Positions 2,838-39,860 of a stretch of 39,860 bases of DNA are shown here, in pieces. Origin of the DNA: a virus; the IMG/VR virus record IMGVR_UViG_3300028806_000002, positions 1-39,860 of that record. The stretch is one strand, 5' to 3'. The stretch's first letter is position 1, and every line of letters starts with the position of its first letter. The notes beneath the pieces were generated by a model that worked only from the letters and a program-made list of their open reading frames with translations, did not search any database and was not told the DNA's origin. Made by a program: the position numbers and the translations under genes.

Positions 2838-3272
2838 ATGATAAATTTAATCGCAAATGATAAATACAAATCACTCGGCTGCAAATGGGATTCTTCGGCA
2901 AAACAATGGGTTCCGCCAAAACTTGCAAAAAAAGAATTTGAAGAGATAAGAGATAAATTTTTTAGCGATCTAATAGTGATAGAAGTTAAATCTTTGCCGG
3001 ACAAAATGTTAAAAGGTAAAGATTGGGGGTTTATACACGTGCGAATGATCGGCGGTTATTTAGTCGCAAAAGTAAATAATAGAGACAGCGGGGCAGAAAT
3101 TTTTAAAGATATAGCTTTAATAAAAGGTAAATTTACCTCAAGTGGTTCGAGAAAAAATTATTTTTGCGATCACGACGAGGTAATCTTGAGGCTAGAAGTT
3201 TCGAAAGGCTCGATAGAATACATAGATAAGGAAGTTGCCGAAGGAATTTACACGTATGAAATAATTGGATAA
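2838..3272 (+). CDS. Hypothetical protein with a DUF5710-like N-terminal motif
   Basis: 144-aa ORF with leader TAAGGAGATACAAAG. The N-terminus NDKYKSLGCKWDSSAKQWVPP resembles the ak.LGArWD...K.W motif. Function unknown. Confidence 0.7.
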   Translation: MINLIANDKYKSLGCKWDSSAKQWVPPKLAKKEFEEIRDKFFSDLIVIEVKSLPDKMLKGKDWGFIHVRMIGGYLVAKVNNRDSGAEIFKDIALIKGKFTSSGSRKNYFCDHDEVILRLEVSKGSIEYIDKEVAEGIYTYEIIG

Positions 3273-4438: not shown

Positions 4439-4582
4439 ATGAATCAAATATTTATAAAGGTTACAACCAAAAAAGAAGCTCGAAGGTTTGCACCTTGGGC
4501 TTATAAAATTGTTAAAGTGTTTGATATGTGGGTAGCATTTCAAACAAAAGAAGATTACATGATTTGGAAAAAACAGAAATAA
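4439..4582 (+). CDS. Small hypothetical protein (47 aa)
   Basis: Translation: MNQIFIKVTTKKEARRFAPWAYKIVKVFDMWVAFQTKEDYMIWKKQK. Followed by the AACTTAACTAAGGA cassette. Confidence 0.45.
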   Translation: MNQIFIKVTTKKEARRFAPWAYKIVKVFDMWVAFQTKEDYMIWKKQK

Positions 4583-4604
4583 CTTAACTAAGGAACCTAC
4601 GAGA

Positions 4605-4763
4605 ATGTATACAATAGACAAAGCAAAAGAAATAGTATTACAGGAAATTAATTCTCTTAAAAATATGATTAATTCTAACTCAAATGACTTAGATTTTGAA
4701 ATGGGTGAATTATATTCTTGCAAATGGTTTTTAATGTTGCTTAATCGTCTGGAAAAGGAATAA
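4605..4763 (+). CDS. Small hypothetical protein (52 aa)
   Basis: TAAGGAAC SD upstream. Translation: MYTIDKAKEIVLQEINSLKNMINSNSNDLDFEMGELYSCKWFLMLLNRLEKE. Confidence 0.45.
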   Translation: MYTIDKAKEIVLQEINSLKNMINSNSNDLDFEMGELYSCKWFLMLLNRLEKE

Positions 4764-4765
4764 AC

Positions 4766-4927
4766 ATGGCAACTACAGTTAAAATCACTAGTCTCGCGCT
4801 CACTAAGTCTGATCTTGCAATGCTCGAAGCCCTCTCTAAAAGAGAGGGCGAAAGTTATACGCAGATACTTAAGCGCGGGCTGATATTGGTGCACTACATA
4901 ACATTTTTTTCGGAGAAAAAGAAATGA
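4766..4927 (+). CDS. Small protein, possible ribbon-helix-helix fold (53 aa)
   Basis: MATTVKITSLALTKSDLAMLEALSKREGESYTQILKRGLIL has a strand-helix-helix pattern. It sits near the 3' end of the small-gene operon, and its stop overlaps the next ATG. Confidence 0.45.
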   Translation: MATTVKITSLALTKSDLAMLEALSKREGESYTQILKRGLILVHYITFFSEKKK

Positions 4928-5145
4928 CAGAATCAGAAAAAATTGCGATTACAAAATATGATTTATATTATGAATCTCGCATGACAAAAGTTGAAGCGAC
5001 TACAGAAGCTTTAAAAAATGACATTTTAGAAATCAAGTCTAACATAAAAGAAATTCGCTCTGATCTAAAATGGATGTTAGGAGTTATGGGCTCGGTTGGA
5101 ATGATAATTGTGGGATTAATGGCTCACGGCTTCAAATGGTTTTAA
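4924..5145 (+). CDS. XhlA-like coiled-coil protein with a C-terminal TM helix (lysis-associated?)
   Basis: 73-aa protein with a coiled-coil N-terminus and hydrophobic WMLGVMGSVGMIIVGLMAHGF. Convergent with the lysis genes. Confidence 0.55.
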   Translation: MTESEKIAITKYDLYYESRMTKVEATTEALKNDILEIKSNIKEIRSDLKWMLGVMGSVGMIIVGLMAHGFKWF

Positions 5146-5459
5146 CTTTTCTCAGTCTGCCATTTGAGCTTAACGCTTATCTCTGCCTCTGCTAGATTCC
5201 CGATCGAGTCTAGCGTAGTGCAGAGCCAATCGCCGTGCTCGTGCTCGATACTTTCGAGCTTGGTTTGTGAATCAGGGTCGCTAATAATGTTGTTAACAAG
5301 CTCAGATAAATTTTGCGGATTTGCGTTAAATGCTTTGGCTAAAATTGGCAGGATATAACCTGTGGCGAAGCCTATCGGGCCACCCAACGCGGTTCCGATG
5401 CTAGGCGCAAATTTGCTTATAATTGGGAGTGCATCGTTGAATATTGCGCTGATTTTCAT
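5142..5459 (-). CDS. Putative holin-like membrane protein
   Basis: 105 aa. Gly-rich hydrophobic N-terminus (APSIGTALGGPIGFATGYILPILAKAF) directly downstream of the endolysin. Confidence 0.5.
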   Translation of the reverse strand: MKISAIFNDALPIISKFAPSIGTALGGPIGFATGYILPILAKAFNANPQNLSELVNNIISDPDSQTKLESIEHEHGDWLCTTLDSIGNLAEAEISVKLKWQTEKS

Positions 5460-8257: not shown

Positions 8258-8285
8258 TTGACCTATTCCGTGGGCAACGTATAAT
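8258..8285 (+). promoter_or_regulatory. Near-consensus sigma70 promoter
   Basis: TTGACC (8258-8263), 16-nt spacer, TATAAT (8280-8285). It points into the antisense of gene 8377..8553. Confidence 0.55.
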
Positions 8286-8328
8286 TGACGTTGCGTTCGC
8301 AGGGTAGGATTGCCCGAATTGTTAGAAG

Positions 8329-8352
8329 TCACCCAGCCGCCAAGCTGGGTGA
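8329..8352. other. Stable hairpin in the regulatory gap
   Basis: TCACCCAGC (6-nt loop) GCTGGGTGA, a 9-bp perfect stem with no U-tract on either strand. Confidence 0.45.
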
Positions 8353-34281: not shown

Positions 34282-36459
34282 TTATTCACGTTTTGCAACT
34301 TTTGTCTTTTCATGTGCTGCCTTATGTTGTAATTCCTTATGATGCATTTCTTTTTCATGATGCAACTGACTAGCGTGCGTGAGCATCTTAATCATGTTCT
34401 GAGAATTAGTTATTTGCATATCAACCCCCATACGCTGATTTTCAGCCGTATAACGCAATATAGTCTCTTGCAACTGAGCTGCTTCTTTCTGCTTATCAGC
34501 TTCTAACTTCGCAAATCCAAGTGACATATCTTGTTGCGTCTCAAGTGCCTTTCGTTGCAATTCTTGTTTCTTCAATTCTAATTCCTGCATCTTCATTTGA
34601 GATTCTTGTTGTGCTTGTTGTGCTTTTTGTTGCATCTCTTGTTGCTTGAGTTGTAACATCATTGCATCAGGTGAAGGTTGCGGAGGTTTAGGAGGTAATG
34701 GTTTACCAGTCTTTCCAGCTTCAATTATTTCAGGCGGAACTAAAGTTCTTAATCGATTACGTAATTCCATATTGTTATCTAGTGGAAGATTTTCAGCGTA
34801 TAGATCTGCAATCATTGGGAACACTTGACCAGCCCTATCAGCTTGCAAAACGGATTGTAGCGATAGCAGTGCTTCTTGCTTCTGTCCCTCGTAAGAAGGC
34901 CCCGCTTTAAGTCTGATATTATACTTACCCTTAGTCATATCATTTTTCATTTGCAACCCATACTCATCCATAGGTTGATTGATATTGACTGTCTGAGATT
35001 CAGATTCCGGCATATTCAATACAAGTGAGCGCTCAGTATCATAGATTTCAGGTATCCACTCGTTTATGATTTCGCCACCCGTTGCAATTGCGATATTTAT
35101 TGAATTGAATGGTGTTGCTGTATTACGTGTACCTCTATTTGTTCGAGCTTCGATTGCAGTGCCAGAAACTTCATTGCCTAACTCGCCCATTTGTGTATCA
35201 TACATACCCGTGCCGCTCTGGATATCCATTAAGGTACGTTCGTATTGTTGTACCAGGGATTGTGATAACTCGGGCGGCTTTAGTTGTTCAGGCTTAGCAC
35301 CGCTAGCCGTTTCATCGTAATATAACGCACCATTTACTACCGAAGGGTCACGCCATTGCTGCTGTGCATCAGGAGATGCTGCGCACTTACGCGGCATGAT
35401 GAATTGATCAAACCTAGATATTTTCAGCATATAAGCTGATTGTGTTGCGAGATAATTTAGATATTTCTGTGCGTCTTTGACATCTTTGAAGAACGAACGT
35501 GTGATCTGCTGACCTTGTTTAGAGAAATAACTTTTCTGGTCAACAAAAACAACGGGCAATAATGTGGCTTTAGAAGGTAAATAAGTCTCTTCAAGTACAA
35601 AATCACCCGCTATCTGGGTATGTTTTATTTTATACTTTATTGATTCACGTTTATCAACAACTGTAACAGCTTGGCCATTACTAATAATATATTTTTTACC
35701 GTCAAACTTTACTTTCTCTAACTTTTTAAATTCTTTATCATTAACAATAGAACCATCTGATAGTTTGTAAATTGTTATCTCTTCAGGTTCTTTATTGTAA
35801 TCATCGACAATTGTAATCGAATCATCATCAGCAAAGGCAATTGTGCTATCTTCGGTTATTGCAGTCGTTCCAATCTGCGATTCAATGTCACGACCCCATG
35901 TATCTCTAAATTTTCTGCGTGATATTCTCGTTTTATATCCTGAAAACATGCCATCTACTTTACAAACATGTTTTGCTGATATATCCCAGTAACAACGATT
36001 AGGGTCTTCGAACGGATAAATCTTTATTATTTGCTCAAAACTTTCATTATCTTTGTATTCAGTATCTATTCTATATGCACCAAATCCACCGCAAGTCGAA
36101 TGACTAAATGCATTTTGATATACACTCTTAGCATCTGAGTTAAAACTGATATCTTTGACAATTGCAGCACGAACTTGCGCGGTTTCTGGGGGAACATCTT
36201 CGGAAGGCATGATCTGCATATTCGGTGTATTGAATATTTGCTCACCGCAAAGATGATTATGCAGAACGCCAAGTTTATTGAATACTAATGGGATTTTGTT
36301 ATAACGTTCGAATAACTCAGATTCATTTTCTCGCCACTGGTCGCCCATGATGAAATCGAGCCACTCATAGTACATAGACCTGTTTATAGTCCAATACTTC
36401 TCCCACTTATCGACTCTATCCCTTATCTTCCGGCATAGTTCCGGATTTTTGCTTGGCAT
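34282..36459 (-). CDS. Portal protein (P22-like, 725 aa, long C-terminal coiled-coil barrel)
   Basis: The N-terminus DFIMGDQWRENESELFERYNKIPLVFNKLG fits portal motifs. The Q/K/E-rich C-terminal helix resembles the P22 gp1 barrel. Position relative to terL and scaffold also fits. Confidence 0.8.
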   Translation of the reverse strand: MPSKNPELCRKIRDRVDKWEKYWTINRSMYYEWLDFIMGDQWRENESELFERYNKIPLVFNKLGVLHNHLCGEQIFNTPNMQIMPSEDVPPETAQVRAAIVKDISFNSDAKSVYQNAFSHSTCGGFGAYRIDTEYKDNESFEQIIKIYPFEDPNRCYWDISAKHVCKVDGMFSGYKTRISRRKFRDTWGRDIESQIGTTAITEDSTIAFADDDSITIVDDYNKEPEEITIYKLSDGSIVNDKEFKKLEKVKFDGKKYIISNGQAVTVVDKRESIKYKIKHTQIAGDFVLEETYLPSKATLLPVVFVDQKSYFSKQGQQITRSFFKDVKDAQKYLNYLATQSAYMLKISRFDQFIMPRKCAASPDAQQQWRDPSVVNGALYYDETASGAKPEQLKPPELSQSLVQQYERTLMDIQSGTGMYDTQMGELGNEVSGTAIEARTNRGTRNTATPFNSINIAIATGGEIINEWIPEIYDTERSLVLNMPESESQTVNINQPMDEYGLQMKNDMTKGKYNIRLKAGPSYEGQKQEALLSLQSVLQADRAGQVFPMIADLYAENLPLDNNMELRNRLRTLVPPEIIEAGKTGKPLPPKPPQPSPDAMMLQLKQQEMQQKAQQAQQESQMKMQELELKKQELQRKALETQQDMSLGFAKLEADKQKEAAQLQETILRYTAENQRMGVDMQITNSQNMIKMLTHASQLHHEKEMHHKELQHKAAHEKTKVAKRE

Positions 36460-36486
36460 AATAAGTTAATCCTTTAACTTATCGCT

Positions 36487-36516
36487 ATTATAGCATTTTG
36501 GTGTATTTTACACCAA
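36487..36516 (-). promoter_or_regulatory. Extended -10 promoter upstream of the portal gene
   Basis: On the minus strand: TTGGTG, 18-nt spacer, (TGC)TATAAT. The -10 box lies ~28 nt upstream of portal ATG 36459. Confidence 0.5.
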
Positions 36517-37021
36517 TATCATCCTTGCCTTAGTAAACAAAACAGTACAACACAATACAACACAATACACTATTAAAAACCCTTACCTTACATTTCAGCA
36601 CAAAACAATACACCACACCACAACACATGACAGGAAAAAATTAAAACCCTTACATTTCCTTACAACGCATAACATCACAATGCATTACATATCGGCACAA
36701 TACATCACAATATTAAAAACCCGTACATTTCCTTACAATGCATTACATCACACAACAATACGCCACAACACAAAACAAAACATCACATGACACTATTAAA
36801 AACCCGCACATTTCCTTACAACGCATAACATCACAATGCATTACATATCGGCACAATACATCACAAAATAAAAATCCTTACCTTACAAGACATTACCCCA
36901 CAACACAGCACGCTACAACACATTACAAAATTAAAACCCTTACCTTGCCTTACGCCACAGGACAGCACATCACATAACAGAACCTGACATGACAATATTA
37001 AAAACCCTTACCTCGCCTTAC
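36515..37021. repeat. Repeat array A: 8 copies of a 62-83-bp unit
   Basis: Plus-strand core is ATTAAAAACCC(K)TAC(A/C)TT(TC)CCTTACAA. Copies start at 36515 (degenerate), 36572, 36640, 36712, 36795, 36867, 36930 and 36997. Inter-core segments are A/C-rich and related to each other. Confidence 0.9.
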
Positions 37022-37072
37022 GAAACAGCACGCTACAGCACGCTACAGCACATCACACCACATTACACAATA

Positions 37073-37104
37073 GTTTCAATCCACGCGCTCGTGAAGAGCG
37101 CGAC
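37073..37104 (-). CRISPR. Solitary type I-C-like CRISPR repeat (single copy, no array)
   Basis: The minus strand reads GTCGCGCTCTTCACGAGCGCGTGGATTGAAAC. This shows the I-C hallmarks: GTCGCGC 5' end, 7-bp stem CGCGCTC/GAGCGCG with a 5-nt loop, and an 11-nt TGGATTGAAAC tail. It is a GC-rich island in an AT/AC-rich spacer. Confidence 0.8.
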
Positions 37105-37137
37105 TACAAAACAGCACAACACAACACACAACATCAA

Positions 37138-37166
37138 AGTATAATTATTAGTTACTCTCACGCCAA
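37138..37166 (-). promoter_or_regulatory. Candidate promoter reading into the solitary repeat
   Basis: On the minus strand: TTGGCG, 17-nt spacer, TATACT. It overlaps the 3' end of ORF 37148..37693, with the -10 box ending 33 nt upstream of the repeat. Confidence 0.35.
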
Positions 37167-37693
37167 TTCGTCACAACAAATCGTCCATATATACCTTTTC
37201 TAGCTGGCCTAAAATCACCTAACCCTATTTTGGTTCCAGCATCGTCAATCAAAGTACGGATGAATTTTGGGCTAAACATCTTTAAATCCAACGTCAAAGT
37301 AAAATCTATGCACCAATTATCTAGCCTAGGTCTATGACAAACGATTCGACCACCAGTTGACGGAACAACGACAGCCCTGCTATCAACTTCCCACGTTTCA
37401 GGCGATTTAAAATACACGATTTCGCCTAAAATCATCACACCAGCAGGAACTAAAGAACTTCTAGCAGTCGTTACTTTTACCTTACCATCTTTATGAAATT
37501 TACCTGCTTCAACCAAGCAAGCAAAAATATTCACAGTAGGATAATATAATTTTTCATCCTCATCGACATAGCAAACACGTCTAGCAGCTTCGCGAGGTAA
37601 TATATCTTTATCTTTTTTTACTTTCTGCTCATCAATATTAAAACGATTCATCAGAAGCGGTGTTATCCCTGTTATTTCTATATCAATATTCAT
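37148..37693 (-). CDS. Hypothetical 181-aa protein with RAMP-like motifs
   Basis: Track ORF. Its SD is the double AAGG of array copy B1 (TAAGGTAAGGATATTAAATG). Motifs in RAMP order: IEITGITPLLMNRF, LYYPTVNIFACLVEAGK, GLGDFRPARKGIYGRFVV (Gly-rich loop-like). Confidence 0.7.
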   Translation of the reverse strand: MNIDIEITGITPLLMNRFNIDEQKVKKDKDILPREAARRVCYVDEDEKLYYPTVNIFACLVEAGKFHKDGKVKVTTARSSLVPAGVMILGEIVYFKSPETWEVDSRAVVVPSTGGRIVCHRPRLDNWCIDFTLTLDLKMFSPKFIRTLIDDAGTKIGLGDFRPARKGIYGRFVVTNWRESN

Positions 37694-37695
37694 TT

Positions 37696-37986
37696 AATAT
37701 CCTTACCTTAGATTACAGCGCAATACAAAACAGCACGTCACAATACAACACATTATTAAAAACCCGTACATTTCCTTACAACACAAAACACTACATTACA
37801 TAACGCCACAATACATCACATCACAGAAAATTATTAAAAACCCTTACATTGGATTGCATTAGAGCACAAGACAAGACACTACAACACAAGACAGCACAAT
37901 TAAAAACCCTTACATTTCCTTACAACACAAAACATTACATAACGCCACAATACATCACGTTTAAAAACCCGTACATTTCCTTACAA
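37696..37986. repeat. Repeat array B: 5 copies of the same unit
   Basis: Cores at 37696 (degenerate, doubles as the RBS), 37755, 37833, 37899 and 37960. Spacers are homologous to one another (ACACAAAACAYTACATAACGCCACAATACATCAC). Confidence 0.9.
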
Positions 37987-38076
37987 CACAAGACAGTACA
38001 ATACAGTACAATACAAAACATCACGTTTAATGAAACAAAAAAATATACATAGATAATTGATACTTGTAAACATTTA

Positions 38077-39597
38077 CTATCGAAACATCCCTCTTTCGTG
38101 TGGCATTAACTTGGGTACTTCAATTGCTGTCTGTACGCCGTGAAACCCTCCAGCAAACGTTAAACACAACGCATCAGCACCATCAGGGCTTGGCAATCCT
38201 CTTGCCCGTAAATCATCCTTCGATTCAATCTGTACCTGCCCATTTGAGTTTTCTTTGAAGCCTAATGAACACAATTCGCCGTGCAATGTGTCCTCGTCCG
38301 GTATCTGCACTGGCATATCTTGATATAGCCAATCTCGCATATCACCCCACAATTCCGCACGCTGATTCTTGTAACGTTCCTTGTCATTAGCACTACGAGC
38401 AACATTTACACCTTCAACACAGTCATAACCCATTTCATTTAATCTGTCCACAACGCCTGCACCGATTCCAATGCAATCAATATATACTTTGTCGGGTTTT
38501 TCCTCGGTTATAATGCGCTTAACACGGCCTGCAATTTCCATCGTATTGAGATGCGAGACACGTTCTAAGTTATAAGCACATCTTCCCTTACGGCGAATAA
38601 TAGCAGTCCGATCTCTATCTGATATCGCAACATCCACCCCAATAATAAGCTTGCTACCCATATCAACTTTTGCAGCACGCGCAAATTCAACGTACTTAGA
38701 ATTGATAAACACGTTGTGAATAGGGTTTTTAAATGCTTCAATTGAATTAAAAGGGTACTCAACATTAAATCGTTCTCTTCCTGCATCAAAATCCTTTGAA
38801 AACTCGTTAATTTTTAACCTACGCCAAGATAAATTATCATTAGTTAACCCATTTTTTCCATACTGAGACACTAAATACTCTTCTTCATCCGATAAATGCA
38901 TATTTTCGGAGTTATGCGAGTACTCATCATTCCAATACCATGGCAAAAATATACTTTGATACTCACTATCAGGCGACATACCTGATAACCAGCGCTCATG
39001 GAAGTAATTTCCGATACCATTTGCCGTAGATTCTAGGATAATTTCCGTACCTGGTTCATTTGAGATTGCCTGCAAGATACCTTTGCTATGATCTTCAGCA
39101 AATGCCCAAAATGCGACTTCTGAACCGTGGAAAAGCTGCACGGTTTGCGACCGACCGACTGCTTTATTGCCTGCAGTACCAATCGCGTAGCCTGAATCTA
39201 ATTGCTTAAAGTTTAATTCCTTTGCATTATCCGTATTCGGCTTAGGGCATAATCCTGGTTCCAAGTTTTCATTAAACCGTTTGGCCATATTGAACAGATT
39301 ATTAGTTGCTTCTTTATCGTGCGTGAGAATAAATGCTTTTTTACCGCGCGAAGTGATGATCTGATGGAAGAACCTAGCCTGTATATATGTTGAACAACCT
39401 TGTTGTCGTCCCTTTAAAATGCAGGCACGCACACGTCCCGTCGATTCCTTTTGACGAGCAAGACGTTCATGTAAGTAGGACTGTGCGCGATTAAACGTGA
39501 AATACTTTTTAACACCGGCCTTGTCTTTAACAATCAGAAATCGCTCGGCAAATTTCTGAAAATCCCTAATTGAATCTAATTTAGCTTGACTTATCAA
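38077..39597 (-). CDS. terL: Terminase large subunit
   Basis: 506 aa. Deviant Walker A in ACILKGRQQGCSTY, FILTHDKEA, and a C-terminal nuclease-like IGVDVA...YIDCIGIGAGV...DGADAL. The only in-frame start is TTG 39597. Confidence 0.85.
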   Translation of the reverse strand: MISQAKLDSIRDFQKFAERFLIVKDKAGVKKYFTFNRAQSYLHERLARQKESTGRVRACILKGRQQGCSTYIQARFFHQIITSRGKKAFILTHDKEATNNLFNMAKRFNENLEPGLCPKPNTDNAKELNFKQLDSGYAIGTAGNKAVGRSQTVQLFHGSEVAFWAFAEDHSKGILQAISNEPGTEIILESTANGIGNYFHERWLSGMSPDSEYQSIFLPWYWNDEYSHNSENMHLSDEEEYLVSQYGKNGLTNDNLSWRRLKINEFSKDFDAGRERFNVEYPFNSIEAFKNPIHNVFINSKYVEFARAAKVDMGSKLIIGVDVAISDRDRTAIIRRKGRCAYNLERVSHLNTMEIAGRVKRIITEEKPDKVYIDCIGIGAGVVDRLNEMGYDCVEGVNVARSANDKERYKNQRAELWGDMRDWLYQDMPVQIPDEDTLHGELCSLGFKENSNGQVQIESKDDLRARGLPSPDGADALCLTFAGGFHGVQTAIEVPKLMPHERGMFR

Positions 39598-39695: not shown

Positions 39696-39860
39696 CTATC
39701 TTTTCTTATCGTAATTGAAATCATTCTCTGGCGGCATTTCAGGCGATAGCTGCACGTTACGCTTGGCACCTTCCATCTTAGTCGGAGGATGCGCAACATT
39801 AGCCATATCTGCCATATTGTTGTAGCCCATACCTTTGTTCATCTCGATATTATTGCGCGC
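39696..39860 (-). CDS. 3' part of the junction-spanning 79-aa ORF (the portion 39734-39860 duplicates 1-127)
   Basis: Frame ...SPEMPPENDFNYDKKR ends at TAG 39698-39696. Confidence 0.5.
   Translation of the reverse strand, partial: ARNNIEMNKGMGYNNMADMANVAHPPTKMEGAKRNVQLSPEMPPENDFNYDKKR
39734..39860. repeat. Second copy of the 127-bp terminal overlap
   Basis: Identical to 1-127. Confidence 0.95.

Follow-up and report, generated by a model that had tools for sequence, protein, structure and literature searches.

A likely stand-alone VIPR guide-RNA system carried between the portal and terminase genes of a P22-like phage

The phage genome in IMG/VR virus record IMGVR_UViG_3300028806_000002 was analysed over its positions 1 to 39,860 (hereafter, the window), and contains an unusual island between the genes for the large terminase (terL) and the portal. 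All genes in this part of the genome lie on the minus strand. An earlier reading of the same letters (the original prediction) described a gap of 1,617 bp holding a single 546-bp open reading frame (ORF), and both were confirmed to the base: the gap spans 36460-38076, exactly 1,617 bp, and its sole 546-bp ORF spans 37148-37693 on the minus strand. We consider it very likely that the island is a stand-alone Viral Interference Programmable Repeat (VIPR) system, which a P22-like phage carries as mobile cargo within its packaging module; the ORF would encode the Vipr protein and the repeats around it would encode guide RNAs. The gene and its two neighbours are as follows.

38077-39597, minus strand: terL, large terminase (phrog_2, E 1.2e-26), the upstream boundary of the island.
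37148-37693, minus strand: vipr, predicted from a profile match, BLASTP, and AlphaFold2 and Foldseek to encode a 181-aa minimal RAMP (Cas7-like) protein, here called ORF181.
34282-36459, minus strand: portal gene (PF16510 P22_portal, E 3.5e-94), the downstream boundary of the island.

The non-coding DNA on both sides of vipr is written in pentamers. Parsed 5 nt at a time, backwards from conserved tails, it yields 14 units on the gene strand, five upstream of vipr (u1-u5) and nine downstream (d0-d8), and the register is kept in every one of them. Across the 125 variable pentamers, position 1 is T in 93%, position 4 is T in 89% and position 5 is G in 97% (entropies of 0.43, 0.61 and 0.20 bits), while positions 2 and 3 are hypervariable at 1.83 and 1.87 bits, giving the consensus Y-N-N-U-G. 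Units contain 6-12 variable pentamers, or 8-15 when the 2-3 pentamers of the tail are included, and the autocorrelation of TG on the gene strand peaks at lags of 5, 10, 15 and 20. A tract detector requiring at least six in-register pentamers, with constraints on positions 1, 4 and 5, returned 14 tracts from all 39.9 kb of the genome; each lies on the gene strand inside 36523-38023, the opposite strand has 0, and composition-matched shuffles gave 0.13 tracts. The core TTAAAAACCCKTAC is present 11 times on the plus strand (0.9 expected), every copy being in the island.

Nearly every tract is followed by a tail, TAAGG-AAATG-TAAGG-G-UUUUUAAU (in degenerate form TAAGG-(A/C)A(A/G)(T/G)G-TA(A/C)GG-G-TTTTTAAT), which is made up of 2-3 canonical YNNGG (YAAGG) pentamers and then a U-rich linker whose border with the leader of the next unit is not fixable from the sequence. 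As no copy of the tail lies upstream of the first unit and the last units keep theirs, the tail can be assigned to the 3' end of each unit. The repeat arrays of the original prediction are therefore present, though not as generic repeats: judged by their code, they are predicted to be about 14 pentamer-coded genes for guide RNAs (vrRNAs), listed here in the order of the gene strand.

37969-38023, minus strand: vrRNA unit u1, 8 variable YNNUG pentamers and the tail TAAGG AAATG TACGG.
37908-37957, minus strand: vrRNA unit u2, 7 variable pentamers and a tail.
37842-37896, minus strand: vrRNA unit u3, 9 variable pentamers and a degenerate tail.
37764-37828, minus strand: vrRNA unit u4, 10 variable pentamers and a tail; a near-duplicate of the u2 guide.
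37701-37755, minus strand: vrRNA unit u5, 9 variable pentamers and the tail TAAGG TAAGG A, which is also the Shine-Dalgarno sequence of vipr.
37107-37136, minus strand: unit d0, 6 YNNUG pentamers and no tail, a CRISPR repeat standing in the tail's place.
37006-37070, minus strand: vrRNA unit d1, 10 variable pentamers and the tail TAAGG CGAGG TAAGG.
36938-36997, minus strand: vrRNA unit d2, 9 variable pentamers and a tail.
36876-36930, minus strand: vrRNA unit d3, 9 variable pentamers and a tail.
36804-36868, minus strand: vrRNA unit d4, 10 variable pentamers and a tail; same guide as d6.
36721-36795, minus strand: vrRNA unit d5, 12 variable pentamers and a tail; the longest guide.
36648-36712, minus strand: vrRNA unit d6, 10 variable pentamers and a tail; a duplicate of d4.
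36581-36635, minus strand: vrRNA unit d7, 8 variable pentamers and a tail.
36523-36572, minus strand: vrRNA unit d8, 8 variable pentamers and the tail TAAGG CAAGG; the last unit before the portal gene.

Because d4 and d6 share one guide and those of u2 and u4 are nearly the same, the array seems to have grown by duplication of whole units, followed by divergence at the two variable (NN) positions. The code on the transcribed strand also accounts for the abruptly G-poor plus strand noted in the original prediction, which was borne out: the plus-strand GC skew falls to -0.68 in the island, and G makes up 7.7% of the non-coding island and 16.9% of the remaining genome. The units fold no better than their shuffles (z +1.5 to -0.8), as would be expected of RNA held in a protein filament. 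A search of the island with Rfam found no ribozymes and no hammerheads, its sole match being a weak one to CRISPR-DR9, and the other sizeable ORF of the gap (36738-36977, plus strand, 79 aa) runs antisense to the repeats, with no match to any family.

The original prediction regarded the 546-bp ORF as an orphan. Some 980 homologues of it exist, all of them unnamed and lacking a Pfam domain; searches of ORF181 with Pfam, NCBIfam and PADLOC gave no match, and PHROG 4652 is labelled 'unknown function'. A profile built from 27 homologues and run with hmmsearch against the PDB matched one solved structure, 36pp_D 'SUSP1 Vipr protein' (E 3e-13), over residues 3-174 (172/181 positions), and pairwise BLASTP of ORF181 against the SUSP1 gene product gave 2e-13 at 24% identity. 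The AlphaFold2 model of ORF181 has a pLDDT of 87.4, and its top 50 Foldseek matches in the PDB are Cas7-family RAMPs, the best being type VII Cas7, Csm3 and Cas7-11 (probability 1.0, TM about 0.5). Since the PDB copy used by Foldseek is older than the Vipr depositions, this result is independent evidence for the RAMP fold. In SUSP1, the thumb arginine and the G-loop residues D177/W178/R179 are functional and hold the constant bases of the guide (10.64898/2026.04.26.720927). R138, the thumb residue, and D177/W178/R179 align to R121 and D160/F161/R162 of ORF181, and R121, D160 and R162 are invariant across the 27 homologues. On homology, and with a RAMP fold in the model, ORF181 is thus a predicted Vipr protein and not an orphan. 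A 'hypothetical protein' of Desulfovibrio piger, P0122 (WP_304048670.1), belongs to a cluster whose representative is 57% identical to ORF181; members of the cluster are found on contigs of up to 379 kb (up to 85 kb for WP_304048670.1 itself), so that the Vipr clade occurs in genomes of gut bacteria as well, probably as part of prophages.

Low coding density and repetitive sequence could also be taken for a decayed coding remnant or an assembly artefact, the two outcomes that the original prediction had named as fatal to it. The chance of either is negligible. The ORF is intact and the alignment of the 27 sequences has 49 invariant columns; the arrays keep a strict register and code; and a Logan assembly from an independent read set, SRR8554086, agrees with the window at 100% identity from 36837 to 37785 (949 nt), a segment that spans the ORF, the CRISPR repeat and flanking units, so that the island is no artefact of one assembly.

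VIPR was described only in 2026 and has been characterised in two clades. In these, a small Vipr RAMP polymerises along a vrRNA of 9-16 YNNGG pentamers and an invariant tail; Vipr hides GGY and displays NN, and the filament reads double-stranded DNA (dsDNA) with a one-nucleotide skip, silencing transcription of competing phages, satellites or prophages (10.64898/2026.04.26.720920; 10.64898/2026.04.26.720927). The published architecture places vipr between long intergenic vrRNA regions, and YNNNG is an alternative consensus (10.64898/2026.04.26.720920). The present locus shares with the SUSP1 (type II) and P. fulva prophage systems a RAMP of about 20 kDa with a thumb arginine and a D-aromatic-R G-loop, long non-coding flanks on the same strand with pentanucleotide tracts of three constant and two hypervariable positions, an apparently constant 3' segment, and several guides per locus, and like them it is phage-borne and without cas genes. 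Direct reading of the SUSP1 locus gave the same layout of promoter, vrRNA, vipr and more vrRNAs; a GGGTTTTTAA-type motif lies before each of its tracts, and between units in both systems. In SUSP1 (L032), tracts are preceded by GGGTTTTTAAGTGATG or GGGTCTTTTAATAAGG (1746-1762, 3010-3030, 3160-3180), resembling the GGGTTTTTAATAGTG linker here; the motif may be a conserved 5' element or a processing site. SUSP1 differs in having 4 units against 14 here, a pseudoknot tail in its clade against 2-3 canonical YAAGG pentamers, a position among early genes against the terL-portal junction, no unit bearing a CRISPR repeat, and a vap gene that has no counterpart here.

The likeness extends to the backbone of class 1 CRISPR (clusters of regularly interspaced, short palindromic repeats) complexes, in which Cas7 or Csm3 assembles on CRISPR RNA (crRNA): a RAMP fold with thumb and G-loop, and a binding mode, predicted here, in which every protomer takes up a set number of guide nucleotides and bases are flipped periodically. 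Their period is 6 nt with 5 informative bases, against 5 nt with 2 in this locus. The protein here has a single RNA recognition motif (RRM) and no second domain, there is no repeat-spacer array, adaptation gene or nuclease, and the guides are hard-wired into the genome of the phage.

If the locus works like its SUSP1 and P. fulva homologues, the flanking non-coding DNA would be expressed and processed into about 14 vrRNAs, all from the vipr strand and with five units upstream of the gene and nine downstream of it, the U-G-Y frame being constant, the NN positions acting as programmable letters and a constant tail closing each run. ORF181, as a minimal Cas7-like RAMP, would form a ribonucleoprotein with one Vipr protomer per pentamer, in which R121 and D160-F161-R162 would hold the constant bases so that NN is displayed along a helical filament. 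Such a filament may read dsDNA discontinuously (NN, skip, NN, and so on) and block transcription of its target, the likely targets being competing phages, satellites or prophages of the same host.

Evidence that the arrays belong to vipr comes from more than 20 related loci gathered from IMG/VR and other assemblies. Alignment with relatives was the check proposed in the original prediction, and it gave polymorphic gaps between terL and portal, with and without the gene. Those nearest in terL are listed below.

L001: terL 94% identical; gap of only about 1.1 kb; same ORF, with shorter and different arrays.
L006: terL 85% identical; gap of 261 bp; no ORF181 homologue.
L002: terL 74% identical; gap of 3.5 kb with small ORFs.
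L003: terL 73% identical; gap of 547 bp; two small ORFs and no ORF181 homologue.

Homologues of ORF181 at 70-85% identity occur in other settings too. They lie beside portals that are only 22-30% identical (L013-L016), and in L015 the vipr module adjoins a different terminase family (phrog_38). They are also found about 4 kb upstream of terL in L020, one gene earlier in the related P22-like phage L036 (9482-12579), between a conserved 79-aa gene and terL, and far from any packaging gene in the temperate phage L035. These varied settings of the ORF and its flanks point to a mobile module for which the terL-portal junction is a cargo site, so the accessory cargo proposed in the original prediction held up, both in its presence and absence among relatives and in its occurrence elsewhere. 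The junction in P22-like phages would then be a swap site for such weapons, to which Pfam, NCBIfam and PADLOC are blind.

Tracts flank vipr in 12/12 distinct loci that carry a homologue, always on the strand of vipr, and each of ten loci with a homologous terL but no vipr has 0-1 tracts. Over the whole clade, position 4 is less strict (T 58%), which places these arrays in the YNNNG class, although these figures are partly circular because the detector fixes positions 1, 4 and 5. This co-occurrence bears on a reading of the repeats at the level of DNA, as pac signals, terminase-binding iterons or recombination hot-spots, with the ORF an unrelated passenger. The island does adjoin terL directly and, with a period of 5/10 bp, the repeats could align a DNA-binding protein along a single helix face. 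Such a reading is nevertheless very improbable, since the tracts follow vipr and not terL: they are lacking at the 10 terL-homologous loci without vipr, and are present around vipr far from the terminase (L035) or beside an unrelated terL family, always on the vipr strand.

A comparison with the closest relative is informative about how a VIPR array evolves. In L001 all three proteins are 94% identical to those here, yet its seven tracts have unrelated NN content, as would be expected where guides evolve fast while their scaffold stays fixed. It also bears on the possibility that a VIPR-type ribonucleoprotein serves self-regulation or host takeover, with guides repressing early genes of the phage itself or genes of the host, late-operon timing, and feedback between the tail and the ribosome-binding site (RBS). 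The module sits amid late genes with no terminator-like hairpin at its boundaries, the u5 tail coincides with the Shine-Dalgarno sequence of vipr and tails form the RBS of downstream ORFs in L016 and L020, and scans found no competitor as target, all of which would suit such a role. Against it, guide matches to the phage's own genome do not exceed chance, in line with other VIPRs, and guides that differ wholly between 94%-identical phages fit an arms race better than a conserved circuit; we therefore regard self-regulation or host takeover as unlikely. The tail element itself, TAAGG(T/C)AAGG(A), doubles as a Shine-Dalgarno sequence for vipr (window 37694-37712) and for ORFs after the array in L016 (6740-6760) and L020 (6865-6885). 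That Vipr bound to tail pentamers could feed back on its own translation is offered here purely as an idea.

Several results weigh against the VIPR reading, the first of them on targets. Exact scans of IMG/VR with a 1-nt skip gave 0 matches for d5 (12 NN), d4/d6 (9), d1 (9) and u4 (9), and an 8-NN scan of IMG/VR with d2 gave three matches that are not wobble-aligned, do not extend and look like chance. The 10-NN core of d5 found one metagenome match, 20/20 at its NN letters, in frame and with the skip falling on the wobble position; it was treated as chance, because the contig is of 20% GC, the ORF unannotatable and the flanks mismatched. When 67 guides from 12 loci were compared with 242 kb of related phage DNA, a skip of 1 did no better than skips of 0, 2 or 3 or than shuffled guides. 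Guides also gave nothing above chance against the phage's own genome and the related loci; self-targeting has been reported to be absent in other VIPRs (10.64898/2026.04.26.720920; 10.64898/2026.04.26.720927).

The remaining points on that side concern the machinery. The constant triplet is GGY in SUSP1 and UGY here; H17 of SUSP1, the reader of G1, aligns to an asparagine (N16); and the skip-base pocket is formed by a helical bundle some 16 residues shorter than its SUSP1 counterpart. The replacement of H17 and the shorter bundle suggest that the decoding rule may differ from that of SUSP1. No pseudoknot or stable structure was predicted for the tail, and no vap gene was found in the island; the small ORFs neighbouring vipr in related loci are mutually non-homologous, leaving no conserved neighbour. 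Stand-alone vipr genes have been reported, and the vap accessory is typical but not universal (10.64898/2026.04.26.720920). A VIPR system nonetheless remains the very likely identity of the island. At 24% identity the locus is a clean natural example of a distant clade, and its UGY triplet, shorter bundle, tail of canonical pentamers, lack of an accessory gene and 14 guides make it a useful test of how general the one-nucleotide skip is and of which residues set the constant bases.

The remaining element of the island lies in the downstream array, where the tail of d0 would be expected, 43 nt past the vipr stop codon and behind a promoter-like site.

37073-37104, minus strand: solitary type I-C-like CRISPR repeat, GTCGCGCTCTTCACGAGCGCGTGGATTGAAAC on the gene strand, a candidate RNA anti-CRISPR.

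The original prediction had recognised this solitary repeat, and rightly: GTCGCGCTCTTCACGAGCGCGTGGATTGAAAC is 32/32 identical to the repeats of arrays (6-41 repeats, 66-nt spacing) in metagenome-assembled genomes (MAGs) of Casimicrobiaceae, Gammaproteobacteria, Lysobacterales and Fibrobacteria, and the window has no second copy, even at up to 10 mismatches. One of the MAG arrays comes after cas7-cas4-cas1-cas2, genes that share its orientation and stand in the type I-C order. The repeat keeps the hairpin expected of it, with 7 bp in the stem and 5 nt in the loop (-12.5 kcal/mol, z -2.5). It is not found in L001, in the other VIPR loci examined or in IMG/VR, and no cas-like gene was seen among the annotated ORFs, which cover part of the window. 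Neither the 94 spacers of eight CRISPR loci with the identical repeat, compared with the phage, nor the pseudo-spacers flanking the repeat, compared with the MAG CRISPR loci, gave a match.

A solitary-repeat RNA anti-CRISPR (Racr) has been demonstrated in RacrIC1, and racr genes cluster with genes for anti-CRISPR proteins (PMC10651486). Like RacrIC1 (Camara-Wilpert et al. 2023, PMC10651486), the element here is a single host-type repeat in a phage intergenic region, oriented with transcription, with a promoter-like site upstream and a repeat hairpin; it differs in being embedded in a VIPR guide array at the position of a tail, with no anti-CRISPR protein gene recognised next to it. By this analogy the repeat is probably a Racr separate from VIPR, which would most likely act by titrating host Cas5c or Cascade.

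The whole island might instead be mainly anti-CRISPR, with the RAMP protein a decoy of Cas7, the repeat an RNA anti-CRISPR against a host I-C system, and the GU-rich repeats no more than spacers or expression elements. In its favour are a genuine I-C-type repeat, which comes 43 nt after the ORF with a promoter-like site before it, the clustering of Racr genes with anti-CRISPR protein genes (PMC10651486) and the Cas7-like fold. Eleven other loci of the same clade carry arrays without a CRISPR repeat, which the 94%-identical L001 also lacks; a strict 5-nt code with hypervariable NN is not expected of filler DNA; and the solved structure nearest to the protein is that of a Vipr whose bound RNA is of just this kind. 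We thus find a mainly anti-CRISPR island distinctly unlikely, and the link to CRISPR drawn in the original prediction holds for the single repeat and not for the island as a whole. Within a VIPR locus, a host-type repeat in the guide array suggests that one island may serve both competition between phages and defence against CRISPR.

Excising the repeat together with a TA on either side would fuse d0 and d1 in register into one 16-pentamer guide. A functional fusion of the repeat with the VIPR array, as opposed to an independent passenger, nevertheless strikes us as highly doubtful. Were it true, host Cas5c might process or load a chimeric vrRNA/crRNA, coupling the RAMP-guide system of the phage to the Cascade of its host; alternatively, the locus would be a living example of the recombination between VIPR guide and CRISPR repeat that is needed by the 'VIPR preceded CRISPR' model.

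Promoter-like sites were found at three positions on the gene strand.

38042-38070, minus strand: P1, TTTACA-17-TATATT, 10/12 of consensus, right after the terL stop codon and upstream of u1.
37138-37166, minus strand: P2, TTGGCG-17-TATACT, 9/12 of consensus, within the 3' end of vipr, with d0 and the repeat just downstream.
36487-36516, minus strand: portal-proximal site, TTGGTG-18-TGcTATAAT, with a perfect extended -10 and a weak -35, read from the sequence and missed by the consensus scan.

The original prediction had listed boxes at 37166-37138 and 36516-36487. The first was recovered at 9/12, while the second, with its weak -35, was not called, and promoter-like sites are not enriched in the island (5 found against 6.7 +/- 2.7 in shuffles). 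A perfect 8-bp inverted repeat, TTGGTGTA-AAA-TACACCAA (36498-36516), overlaps the -35 of the portal-proximal site, where it may act as an operator or form the array transcript's 3' end. No terminator-like hairpin was found at either boundary of the island.

Other interpretations of the repeats were considered and set aside. A CsrA sponge, suggested by repeated AAGGA motifs, and an RNA binding a TRAP-like ring, suggested by triplets at a 5-nt period, were raised before the protein was identified and then dropped. A type III toxin-antitoxin system (ToxIN-like) with a toxin of about 180 aa was rejected given the lack of a Pfam ToxN match, the imperfect repeats and their position on both sides of the gene. 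In a putative array of sigma-70 promoters (TTGTAA-N17-TAATAT), the -35 is unconserved in relatives and there is no enrichment over shuffles, and for tiny ORFs after the Shine-Dalgarno-like tails the 5-nt period is incompatible with a reading frame.

With regard to the genome as a whole, the window has a 127-nt direct repeat at its ends (1-127 and 39734-39860), and an ENA contig, ERZ27248783 k141_2659936 (39,856 nt), is a circular permutation of it; together these indicate that the phage genome is complete, at about 39.7 kb. The phage is distant from cultured phages, its portal being at most 27% identical to that of any of them, and a megablast of the terL-to-portal region against GenBank phages gave no match. 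A tRNA scan of the window found nothing. In L020, a tRNA-Asn gene (8265-8338) lies among the vrRNA tracts, so that arrays of this kind can carry other small-RNA genes, as this one carries the CRISPR repeat. Among the related loci, terL is interrupted by about 1.1 kb in L005 (2119-3251), L011 (6091-7160) and L018 (about 4464-5450). These inserts look like homing-endonuclease or intron-type elements, and that of L018 encodes a Cys-rich, HNH-like ORF.

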